Below are positions 46,234 through 49,136 of a DNA stretch of 64,000 nt, piece after piece. The translations under genes were made by a program, and so were the position numbers. The notes under the pieces are model-generated. The model saw nothing but the letters and a program-made list of their open reading frames with translations, searched no databases and was not told where the DNA came from. Position 1 is the first letter of the stretch, and every line of letters starts with the position of its first letter. Origin of the DNA: Armatimonadota bacterium. Lineage in GTDB: Bacteria > Armatimonadota > SYMT01. The DNA lies in contig JAWLHY010000001.1 of NCBI GenBank assembly GCA_041690135.1, positions 928,001-992,000 on the forward strand, read 5' to 3'.

Positions 46234-46560
46234 AGGGCGATTCCGACAACGGGAGCGGGAAGTGCCAGACTCACCTCCATCAGCGCGACGGAAGCGGACT
46301 GGCACAGGTTCCGCCACGGGGCTCGTGACTGTAGGAGATGTGACGCCGTTCCATTCCGAAGGGAACGAAGTTGATCCCGTTTGGCTCAGCGGGAACACTC
46401 TTGTTCCAGGACAGCCACGGGCCTGCAGGACGCGATCAGGAGCAGTCCTGCGGAACGCTACGGTACACCCGGCGAAGTTAGGGCGAGACGTTCCCTACGG
46501 GTGCCGTACACAGAGACACGCAAGTCGGCCCCGCCGAGAACCTCTGGATTGCATGGCACC

Positions 46561-46580
46561 CCCGAGACCGGAGTCTCGGG
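46561..46580 (-). terminator. Hairpin just after the HMA gene stop
   Basis: cccgagac-cgga-gtctcggg, 13 bp past TAA; no clear U-tract. Confidence 0.5.
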
Positions 46581-46593
46581 AGTTGCTAAACCG

Positions 46594-46929
46594 TTACTCG
46601 CTCTTCACGCTTCCCTCGAAGTCCGAGTGCTTCGTAATCGCCTCGGCCAACTCCTGGGGATTGGTCTTCGCCGGATCGTATTCGACCTCCACCGTCTGGG
46701 TCTTCACGTCCGCCTTCATCTTCTTAAATCCATCGACTCTGACCAGAGCCGCTTCCGCGCGGGGCGGTCAGCCGGCCGGTCAATGCATGCCCTTCGCATT
46801 CAACACCGCGGTCTTCATCCCGGGCTCGGGCGCGATCGGCTCCTGCTCGGCGGTCGGAGCACACCCCACGAACGTCCCGGAGACGACGGCGCCGGCCAGA
46901 AGGGCGAAGGCTCGCCTCGTCAGTACCAT
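46594..46929 (-). CDS. Tat-lipoprotein heavy-metal-associated (HMA/MerP/CopZ-like) protein with two in-frame TGA codons; candidate double selenoprotein
   Basis: Manual translation MVLTRRAFALLAGAVVSGTFVGCAPTAEQEPIAPEPGMKTAVLNAKGMH*PAG*PPRAEAALVRVDGFKKMKADVKTQTVEVEYDPAKTNPQELAEAITKHSDFEGSVKSE-TAA; AGGAG RBS; TGA at 46780-82 and 46768-70. Confidence 0.85.
46735..46750 (-). promoter_or_regulatory. Putative bacterial SECIS hairpin
   Basis: GGCUCU-GGUC-AGAGUC; loop begins 24 nt after the second UGA and 36 nt after the first. Confidence 0.55.
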
Positions 46930-47007
46930 CCGCTTCTCCTCGGTAGTCGGAAAGCGGACCCATTCCTTGCCGCCTTCCCTTCCCTTATCCTACGCGCATC
47001 GAGGCAA

Positions 47008-48462
47008 TTAATCACCTGTCGTTCCACTATCGATTGCCTCTATACCTACCGCGGGGAATTCCACGCGGAAGGTGCTGCCTTTTCCCGGGCGGCTCTCGCA
47101 CGAGATGGCCCCCTCATGGGCTTCCACCGCCCAGCGGGTGATGCTGAGCCCCAGGCCCGTGCCTCCGGCGGCGCGGGCGCGGCCCTTGTCCACGCGATAG
47201 AACCGGTCGAAAATGTGCGGCAGGTGTTCGGCCGGGATGCCGATGCCGGTATCCCGTACCTCGAGGATCGCTTTGGATTCGTGCTTCCGCAGCGAGAGGG
47301 TCACGCAGCCCCCTTCCGGCGTGTACTTGATCCCGTTGCTGAGGAGGTTGGTGACCACCTGGTTCAGCCAGAGCGCATCGCCGGCCACGGTAGCGTCTTC
47401 CACCTCGGCCAAGTCCAGCCGCACTCCGTGGCGGGCTGCGAGGGGCTCCAGGCTCTCCATCGCCACCAGCACCAGGCCGGGAAGCTCCACGGGCTCCTTG
47501 CGGATCAACTCCACCCCGGCGTCGGTGCGGGCCAGCAGCAGCAGGCTATCGACGATCTCCGACATCCGCTCCGCCGATTCGAGGATGCTGCCGAGGGAGC
47601 GCCGGTACGCGGCGGCGTCCTGCTCCTCCATCAACGCGACCTCGGCTTCACCGCGGATCGCCGTCAGGGGAGTTTTTAATTCGTGGGAGGCATCCGCGCT
47701 GAACTGGCGGACCTGCTGGAAGCTGCGGTCGAGGCGGGCGATCATCTGGTCGAAGGCCTGCGCCAGGCGACCGATTTCGTCTTCGGGTCCCTCGTGCTGA
47801 AGGCGCCGCTGCAAGTTGGTACTCTGGATATCGAGGGCGGTGCGGGTGAGGCTGTCGACCCGCCGGAGCGCGCGACCCACGACGAGCCAGTTGCCCCCCA
47901 GCGCCAGCAGGAAGACGCCCGGGGTGAGGCCGATCAGGATCCACCGCGCTCGCTGGAGGGCCGCCTCCACCCCTTCTAGTGAGGTGCCGGCCTGAACGAG
48001 GTAGGGGATGCGCGACCCCATGCGCACCGGCACGGTGGCGATGCGGACCGGATGCTCACCCAGCCCGTGGACCGTTTCCAGGTGCGCCCGTCCCGCCAGC
48101 CCCGCCCGCAGCGCGGGCGCGAGCACCGGCAGCGGGTTGGTCTGCAGTCCGTCGGACTTCTCGCGGATGTTCCCCTGGGGGTCCACCACCTGGATGTAGC
48201 GTCCCCAGGTGCGCAGGTCGTTCGCAAGAAACTGCGGAAGAGGGGCGGCCATTCCGGCGTCGTGGGCGGTCTCCAGGCGGTACAGCGTCGTCGCCATCTG
48301 GCGGGCAGTGGTGTCGGCATGCTCCAGAAGTGCCTGATCCGCGCGAGAGTAAAGTACGCGGAAAAGGAGGGCGTAGGTGAGCCCTCCCAGCCCCAGCAGC
48401 GTGAGGCCCATCAGGCCCGCATGCCACAGGGCCAGCTGCGCGCGCAAACCGCCGATCTTCAC
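47008..48462 (-). CDS. HAMP sensor histidine kinase (CusS/CzcS-like heavy-metal type)
   Basis: DEIGRLAQAFDQM, QFSADASHELKTPL, NLLSNGIKY, FDRFYRVDKGR, GTGLGLSI. Confidence 0.92.
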   Translation of the reverse strand: MKIGGLRAQLALWHAGLMGLTLLGLGGLTYALLFRVLYSRADQALLEHADTTARQMATTLYRLETAHDAGMAAPLPQFLANDLRTWGRYIQVVDPQGNIREKSDGLQTNPLPVLAPALRAGLAGRAHLETVHGLGEHPVRIATVPVRMGSRIPYLVQAGTSLEGVEAALQRARWILIGLTPGVFLLALGGNWLVVGRALRRVDSLTRTALDIQSTNLQRRLQHEGPEDEIGRLAQAFDQMIARLDRSFQQVRQFSADASHELKTPLTAIRGEAEVALMEEQDAAAYRRSLGSILESAERMSEIVDSLLLLARTDAGVELIRKEPVELPGLVLVAMESLEPLAARHGVRLDLAEVEDATVAGDALWLNQVVTNLLSNGIKYTPEGGCVTLSLRKHESKAILEVRDTGIGIPAEHLPHIFDRFYRVDKGRARAAGGTGLGLSITRWAVEAHEGAISCESRPGKGSTFRVEFPAVGIEAIDSGTTGD

Positions 48463-49136
48463 GCCGGCTCTTCCCGCAAGACGTAGCCCACGCCGCGGAT
48501 GGTGTGCAGGAGCTTGCGCCCCGCGGCGGGATCGATCTTCTTCCGGAGAAAGTTCATGTACACTTCGAGCACGTTCGACTGCGTTTCGAAGTCGTAGCCC
48601 CAGATGTTCGACAGCAGCTCCTCGCGGGTCAGGGTTTTCTCCGGGAACCGCATCATGTACTCCAGCAGCGCATACTCCTTGTTGGTGAGCTCGATCCGCT
48701 TTCCGTTCCGCGTGACGGTGCGGGAAACGGGATCTAGCACCAATCCCGCGTATTCCAGCGCGGGTACCCGCACCGCCGTGGCCCGGCGCAGCAGCGCCCG
48801 TAGCCGGGCCAGGAGCTCGCCGAACGCGAACGGCTTCGGCAGGTAGTCGTCGCAGCCGGCGTCCAGACCCTCGATCCGGTCCTCCGTGCTGCCGAGGGCC
48901 GTGAGAGCCAGCACGGGGACTTCCATCCGCATACGGCGGATCTCCCGCACCACGTCCAGGCCGCCGATCCCGGGCAGCATCAGGTCCAGTACCACTGCGT
49001 CGTAGCTGGTCGCTTTCAGGCGTTCCAGCGCGGCTTCTCCACTCGCTGCGACTTCCGCTTCGAAGTCGGACTGCTCCAGGCCGCGCCGGATCACGTCCGA
49101 GACCTTTTCCTCGTCCTCCACCACCAGGATCCGCAT
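48459..49136 (-). CDS. OmpR-family response regulator (CusR/CzcR-like)
   Basis: MRILVVEDE, LDLMLP, DDYLPKPF, LTNKEYALL, SNVLEVY..LRKKID, TIRGVGY; GTGA overlap with the kinase. Confidence 0.95.
   Translation of the reverse strand: MRILVVEDEEKVSDVIRRGLEQSDFEAEVAASGEAALERLKATSYDAVVLDLMLPGIGGLDVVREIRRMRMEVPVLALTALGSTEDRIEGLDAGCDDYLPKPFAFGELLARLRALLRRATAVRVPALEYAGLVLDPVSRTVTRNGKRIELTNKEYALLEYMMRFPEKTLTREELLSNIWGYDFETQSNVLEVYMNFLRKKIDPAAGRKLLHTIRGVGYVLREEPA

Follow-up and report, generated by a model that had tools for sequence, protein, structure and literature searches.

A probable selenoprotein gene of an Armatimonadota bacterium with UGA codons at both metal-ligand positions of an exported HMA-type domain

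On the minus strand of the window (the whole stretch of 64,000 nucleotides of Armatimonadota DNA analysed here) lies a gene that, judging from comparison with its homologues, is with high probability a real selenoprotein gene. The product would be an exported and probably lipid-anchored protein made of a single HMA domain of the MerP/CopZ-like kind, in which both metal ligands are selenocysteine (Sec, U) within a GM-x-U-P-x-G-U-P loop and a soft metal would be bound, and we hold this account as a whole to be likely. What supports it is the conservation of both UGA codons over large distances, their alignment with Cys, a full Sec machinery in the genome and the predicted HMA fold. The features of the gene and its neighbourhood are collected in Table 1.

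Table 1. Features of the double-Sec HMA gene, its candidate RNA elements and the adjacent regulatory genes, in window coordinates.
Feature	Position	Strand	Basis
Predicted double-Sec HMA lipoprotein coding sequence, 111 codons + TAA	46594..46929	-	translation, Pfam HMA match, orthologues
Start codon ATG	46929	-	
Stop codon TAA	46596..46594	-	
AGGAG ribosome-binding site, 6 nt 5′ of ATG	46936..46940	-	read from sequence
Putative signal peptide with TRRAF and lipobox F-V-G-C (Cys23)	46861..46929	-	read from sequence, homologue leaders
HMA domain, residues 39-108, predicted beta-alpha-beta-beta-alpha-beta	46606..46815	-	AlphaFold2, Foldseek
UGA 1 (putative Sec50), aligns with first metal-binding Cys of GMxCxxC	46780..46782	-	translation, alignments
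UGA 2 (putative Sec54), aligns with second metal-binding Cys, one residue beyond canonical motif position	46768..46770	-	translation, alignments
Hairpin Ha1, CCGC-CCCGC-GCGG, directly 3′ of UGA 2, candidate SECIS for UGA 1	46755..46767	-	in minimum-energy fold
Hairpin Ha2, GGCUCU-GGUC-AGAGUC, codons A-L-V-R-V, best-supported SECIS candidate	46735..46750	-	covariation, 9 sequences
GC-rich 8-bp hairpin 3′ of stop, without T-run	46561..46580	-	read from sequence
Sensor histidine kinase (HAMP, HisKA, HATPase_c), closest to heavy-metal sensor kinases	47008..48462	-	TIGR01386 266.2 bits, cut-off 292.55
OmpR-type response regulator, closest to heavy-metal response regulators	48459..49136	-	TIGR01387 226.3 bits, cut-off 279.2

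The original prediction described a frame that starts behind an AGGAG ribosome-binding site, is interrupted only by TGA at codons 50 and 54 and ends at a TAA followed by a hairpin, and translation of the window bears this out in each respect: the two TGAs, both inside GMH-U-PAG-U-P, are the only in-frame stops within the 111-codon frame. The hairpin behind the TAA is absent from the list produced by the terminator scan. With Cys placed at both TGAs, a Pfam scan gave an HMA match (PF00403) of 39.2 bits against a gathering cut-off of 24.8, a score far above chance, so that the HMA-like domain seen at the outset holds, as it does in the predicted MerP-like fold described below. Under the standard code, translation of the gene stops at codon 50. 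A word-based search of 5.8 billion clustered proteins with a C-substituted query (E≤1e-5; the 'shorter' and 'longer' length options lay outside this search) found no full-length protein of the double-Sec HMA kind, which fits the expectation that gene callers miss the gene. Two antisense open frames (window 46262-47011 and 46381-47679, both on the plus strand) lie opposite the HMA and kinase genes, and since the minus-strand genes show strong family matches we hold these frames to be probably artefacts of high G+C content.

Six-frame translations of 61 related genomes, read through stops, were searched in an unbiased way, and 9 of the 61 have homologues with an in-frame TGA at the two ligand columns. 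Double-TGA genes are present in the source genome and in G002-G005, four further members of its taxonomic family, and all five read U-P-x-G-U-P. Single-TGA homologues were found in G007, G010, G016 and G038, three with U-P-x-G-C and one with U-G-S-C. A homologue in G001 has no TGA and reads C-Q-G-S-C at the same alignment columns; because its kinase is 65% identical to the kinase of the window, we take this gene to be the orthologous Cys/Cys form. Sec and Cys are thus paired as U/U, U/C and C/C variants at exactly the same two columns, and these Cys/Cys relatives, together with the alignments, agree with the placement of the TGAs at the two Cys ligand positions, with CxxxC spacing, that had been proposed from the sequence of this gene by itself. 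G005 contains a Cys-type HMA paralogue without stops, 37% identical, between the kinase and the double-Sec gene (L018, about 2140-2421; G005:C16:38340-38621), and so holds Sec and Cys versions in tandem.

Conservation of the motif extends well beyond these relatives. A scan for the motif as a DNA pattern in 185,579 species genomes (one per species) matched at least 119 stretches and returned 80 loci, and among these 80 listed loci 13 are HMA genes with both TGAs (E-values of 7e-11 to 2e-45 to a profile built from the family) while the remaining 67 are chance matches. Three of the 13 repeat G002-G004, so at least ten sequences are new; by their record labels, the ten listed comprise seven of Planctomycetota type, two from Armatimonadota (Chthonomonadales and Armatimonadaceae) and one from Haliangium (Myxococcota). 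The pattern GM-x-TGA-P-x-G-TGA-P is therefore kept in at least 15 distinct homologues (the sequence of the window and 14 others), and GMxUPxGUP is invariant though identity over the domain drops to about 22-30% between clades. The one-residue insertion between the ligands is found in 18 of 19 TGA-bearing homologues, the canonical spacing occurring in L030 only. A profile search of 1.84 billion representative proteins gave 33,043 matches; most of the best 150 carry at least three HMA repeats and, dominated in this way, these 150 are uninformative on the frequency of CPxGC Cys forms.

Several individual records deserve mention. Submitter labels disagree among the records of the closest homologues, with L078 and L092 labelled Actinomycetota and L051 and L099 labelled as Armatimonadota-type; L078 and L092 were assigned to the taxonomic family of the window itself. 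In a copy labelled Gemmataceae (L065:2766-2990, minus strand), HMA similarity is lost about 35 residues past the motif, which suggests that this copy is frameshifted or decayed. L177 (G065:C48:17762-17944), in the genome of L099, is another HMA-like ORF with a single TGA in frame and scores 52.8 bits to NF041115.

These data bear on the alternative that the gene is dead or misassembled, with two nonsense changes having struck a former Cys/Cys HMA gene. Such a gene would have a standard translation that ends at codon 50 and would leave no full-length protein in a collection of 5.8 billion, as is the case here. However, the same two TGAs recur in the 15 or more distinct sequences, which come from separate assemblies and in which the frame past the TGAs stays open and is conserved. 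Among five close orthologues, dN/dS 3′ of UGA 2 is 0.15-0.47 in 8 of 10 pairs, below the 0.5 mark, and 0.86 and 1.14 in the remaining two pairs, for which dS estimates are low. In addition, both TGA codons are unchanged in two metagenome contigs from two other sequencing runs, one of 253 nt with 7 differences outside both TGAs and one of 151 nt that is identical; each of these contigs spans part of the gene, and one of the two may stem from the source sample. Conservation across assemblies rules out a pseudogene or an assembly error for practical purposes, and we assign this explanation a negligible probability. The initial argument that Sec recoding is favoured over two chance nonsense mutations is thereby strengthened, both by the conserved double-TGA sequences and by the presence of a Sec machinery.

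That machinery is complete in the source genome (9.1 Mb, 97% complete), which contains selA (481 bits), selB (82 bits), selD (370 bits) and tRNA-Sec with the anticodon UCA (tca; 67 bits), the genes whose presence the original prediction had made decisive for a Sec reading. The selA, selD and tRNA-Sec genes lie side by side on contig 1, and selB lies on contig 8. The selD gene, located outside the window between selA and tRNA-Sec (L166; G000 contig 1, 1150877-1151803), has one in-frame TGA, from which it follows that SelD would itself be a selenoprotein here; a Sec-containing SelD is a known arrangement. Across the 61 related genomes, SelA was found in 40, and TGA-bearing HMA homologues occur in nine genomes that are all SelA-positive and in none of the 21 genomes without SelA, figures that serve as plain counts only since related genomes are not independent. 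Of the ORFs in the window that reach 400 aa (26, some of them spurious), 10 stop at TGA, 9 at TAA and 7 at TAG. Genetic code 4 or 25 was rejected, as it had been from a few neighbouring genes, because TGA is a frequent stop in the window.

Another possibility is that the UGAs are recoded to an amino acid other than Sec, for example to Cys by a tRNA resembling tRNA-Sec, or are read through by a near-cognate tRNA, and the presence of Cys at the same columns in relatives would suit such decoding. Against it, the genes for SelA and SelD, the proteins that produce Sec-tRNA, adjoin that for tRNA-Sec, selD contains a TGA of its own, the TGA-bearing homologues are confined to SelA-positive genomes (9 of 9, compared with 40 of 61 overall), and TGA serves as a stop in the window. 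We therefore consider non-Sec recoding very unlikely, and return to Sec as the probable residue at both codons.

The start of the protein has the features of an export signal. A lipobox is a motif ending in Cys after a hydrophobic leader, and the F-V-G-C of the window protein has counterparts in L-V-G-C, L-L-G-C and L-S-G-C in the leaders of close orthologues; from these motifs a lipoprotein is likely, and the double-Sec HMA protein is thus likely to be lipid-anchored. A lipobox-type Cys is present in 9 of 19 UPxG[U/C]P or near homologues, the others having plain signal peptides or being fusions to MerT. The leader had further been described as a twin-arginine signal, and here the outcome is mixed. 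The Tat signal motif is S/T-R-R-x-F-L-K, and TRRAFAL is indeed present; however, no Tat-signal model matched at E≤1, and within the same taxonomic family RR occurs in 4 of 6 leaders and TRRAF is not conserved.

The remainder of the protein is predicted to adopt the beta-alpha-beta-beta-alpha-beta ferredoxin-like fold of HMA domains. AlphaFold2, run with an alignment of ten sequences, gave block pLDDT values of 83-97 over residues 31-110, with 66 residues above 90. In a Foldseek comparison the top structural match of this model was MerP in its oxidised form (1osd; TM 0.88 on target, rmsd 1.4 Å, 32% identity), followed by copper-ATPase domains and CopZ. The metal-binding loop of HMA domains is GMxCxxC, and the loop of the window protein departs from this canonical form in reading GMxUxxxU: in every alignment to a PDB chain (phmmer), both Sec positions fall on the canonical Cys residues with one extra residue between the ligands.

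The genes around the HMA gene point to a metal context in some lineages. In the window, the HMA gene is preceded upstream, with a gap of 78 nt, by the sensor kinase gene. Linkage of a kinase and the HMA gene was also found in G001 and G005, with synteny kept in L021 and L018, and regulators of heavy-metal type lie upstream of the HMA gene in three related genomes. The HMA module is fused to MerT in L083 (U/U) and L023 (U/C), and the L050 protein joins it to a second HMA-like domain and to a thioredoxin-like domain with the CxxC motif WCQPC. A MerR-family gene adjoins L099 and a TolC-type gene adjoins L053, and gene neighbourhoods differ between lineages. In the source genome (97% complete) there was no match to MerT, and no MerA above the cut-off (best score 377.5 bits, compared with 454.45, located elsewhere in the genome).

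Two of the fused forms have additional features. In L099 (853-1686, minus strand), the double-Sec HMA domain comes, within one ORF, after a Cys-rich stretch (CLGC...C) some 100 residues long, a domain that had no NCBIfam match. In L086 (6381-6791, minus strand), the double-Sec HMA domain is followed by a second HMA-like strand (VTFHVTGMKK...) and then by another TGA, at the point where the similar L050 protein runs on into its thioredoxin-like domain; the extra TGA in L086 may be a third recoded TGA or may mark a truncated fusion.

The main alternative to a metal role is a redox role, in which the double-Sec protein is real but UxxxU forms a diselenide/diselenol redox centre in the envelope and the HMA fold is a mere scaffold. 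The widened spacing departs from the canonical CxxC of metal-binding HMA domains, the top structural match is an oxidised MerP, the source genome has no mer operon and the L050 module is joined to a thioredoxin-like domain with WCQPC, all of which would suit a redox centre. That last fusion, however, may merely keep the site reduced, and two lineages fuse the module to MerT, a metal-ion transporter. Moreover, the heavy-metal-type regulators in three related genomes and the MerR-family gene next to L099 argue for a metal function, and every sequence and structure neighbour is a metal-binding domain. On this evidence we regard a pure redox centre as unlikely, and a soft-metal site of two selenolates in the envelope, inferred by analogy with these metal-binding domains, as the preferred reading.

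If both UGAs are decoded as Sec, RNA elements downstream of them would be expected to take part, and two small hairpins are candidates. In the usual bacterial SECIS, the apical loop lies some 16-37 nt past the UGA and has a G near its start. The loop of Ha1 begins about 19 nt past the U of UGA 1, and small hairpins that resemble Ha1 by eye are present in orthologues. The loop of Ha2 begins 26 nt past the U of UGA 2 and 38 nt past the U of UGA 1, which fits within the usual bacterial window for UGA 2 and at its edge for UGA 1. In nine sequences of the clade of the window, Ha2 pairs in 54 of 54 cells and three of its six base pairs show compensatory change; counting used the very sequences from which the hairpins had been drawn, and the hairpins fall within conserved codons, both of which favour such pairing counts. 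The covariation score of Ha2 was reached by none of 500 shuffles. The single-UGA relatives retain Ha2 as well, 38 nt away from the UGA in L023 and 35 nt in L030.

The Planctomycetota-type clade has different hairpins. The second of them is 90.5% paired (a count favoured in the same way) and has three compensatory pairs, and helix 1 occurs in two registers, with no compensatory change within a single register. Ha2 is absent from the minimum-energy fold of the window itself, in which the UGA 2 segment CUGACC pairs with GGUCAG. The 101-nt fold of the window is no more stable than shuffles (z +0.83); with synonymous-codon shuffles, only one sequence out of 20 falls in the 4% tail, the window itself giving a z of +0.11. 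An Rfam search gave no SECIS or other meaningful match. Ha1 and Ha2 are thus candidate SECIS elements.

Taken together, these observations suggest the following scheme. SelB with Sec-tRNA(UCA) would read both UGAs, which are 12 nt apart, and decoding would be guided either by one downstream hairpin for both or by two hairpins, one for each. The mature protein would reside outside the cytoplasmic membrane, where its two selenolates may together hold a soft metal ion (Cu(I), Ag(I) or Hg(II)). Its probable task would be to trap the metal in the periplasm or to pass it on, either under the control of the neighbouring two-component system of heavy-metal type or in parallel with it. Going further, we tentatively raise the possibility, which we hold to be more likely wrong than right, that proteins with the UPxGUP module make up a selenoprotein family of their own that has so far gone uncatalogued. 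The wider loop with its two selenolates could then allow metal chemistry beyond the reach of the Cys form under the oxidising conditions of the envelope (such as the capture of Hg(II), Ag(I) or Cu(I) present in traces), or could act as a diselenide switch through which the neighbouring CusS-like kinase senses metal or redox state, and the two closely spaced UGAs could be served by a tandem or shared SECIS arrangement uncharacterised in bacteria.

No new principle is involved, since Sec-containing HMA proteins, the UxxU form included, have already been catalogued. The gene nevertheless points to a gap in annotation, as a double-Sec HMA gene is invisible to ordinary gene callers, and it would be a natural case in which two selenolates make up the complete predicted metal site of an exported chaperone-type domain. 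The occurrence of U/U, U/C and C/C forms of one scaffold allows ligation by Se and by S to be compared directly, and two Sec codons four codons apart, accompanied by covarying hairpins, offer a compact test system for how SECIS elements serve neighbouring UGAs.

The closest known counterparts are other Sec-containing proteins of the HMA type. A two-Sec 'putative mercuric reductase' or metal-binding protein with UxxU is tabulated in PMC13188914 and PMC9312934, as is a P-type ATPase selenoprotein with UxxC, in which the first ligand is the single Sec listed, and the GOS paper tabulates a MerP selenoprotein. Related NCBIfam entries are NF041115 ('UxxU_metal_bind, metal-binding (seleno)protein') and NF045683 (a MerT/CopZ-fusion selenoprotein). 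Given NF041115 and the entries in both reviews, an HMA protein with two Sec residues already has a precedent. The original prediction had left it undecided whether an exported double-Sec form had been reported: the catalogued UxxU proteins take away the novelty of two Sec residues in an HMA site, whereas an exported UxxxU form was not found in the searchable literature. A search for the UxxxU selenoprotein motif found no mention in that literature (supplements lay outside the search), and one combining PF00403 with selenocysteine gave nothing relevant. The text of the 2026 review yielded nothing relevant on UxxxU, UxxxC, CxxxU, MerT or lipoprotein forms, and 'mercuric reductase' and 'UxxU' are absent from the main text of the 2007 paper that the review credits, the supplements of which may hold them.

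NF041115 resembles the window protein in having an HMA-type domain with Sec at both metal-ligand positions, and its profile aligns over the whole domain. The two differ in spacing, which is UxxU there and UxxxU here (U-P-x-G-U-P, with Pro after each Sec), and in the export signal that the window protein carries. The window protein scores 38.4 bits to NF041115, and the seven family members scored, the window protein among them, range over 28.7-56.7 bits, against a cut-off of 95; no NF041115 member above the cut-off was found in 156 genomes (five, plus 151 of one order). None of six family members scanned passes any curated NCBIfam cut-off, and the seventh, scored against NF041115 alone, is also below. 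NF045683 and the Sec-containing HMA domain of the P-type ATPase (UxxC) likewise have Sec for Cys in a heavy-metal HMA context, with the first ligand Sec, but a single Sec as far as those tables list; family scores to NF045683 are 23.9-79.5 bits, compared with a cut-off of 375.

Among Cys-containing proteins, MerP (TIGR02052; PDB 1osd and 1afi) is the nearest: it too is small, exported and built of one HMA domain, it gives the best structural match and TIGR02052 is the best NCBIfam match (41.3 bits, below the cut-off of 92.55), and in L083 and L023 the module of the window protein is joined to MerT in the manner of MerTP proteins. In contrast to MerP, the window protein would have Sec ligands, an extra loop residue and a lipoprotein-type signal, and its source genome, in which no merT and no merA above the cut-off were found, lacks a recognisable mer operon. 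CopZ and Atx1-type copper chaperones (PF00403) share the fold and the GM-x-ligand-...-ligand loop, but are cytoplasmic and have Cys ligands with CxxC spacing. We conclude that Sec, and even two Sec residues, in an HMA site is already catalogued, and that the present family differs from the catalogued forms in the UxxxU spacing with Pro after each Sec, in its export and in scores that lie far below the curated cut-offs.
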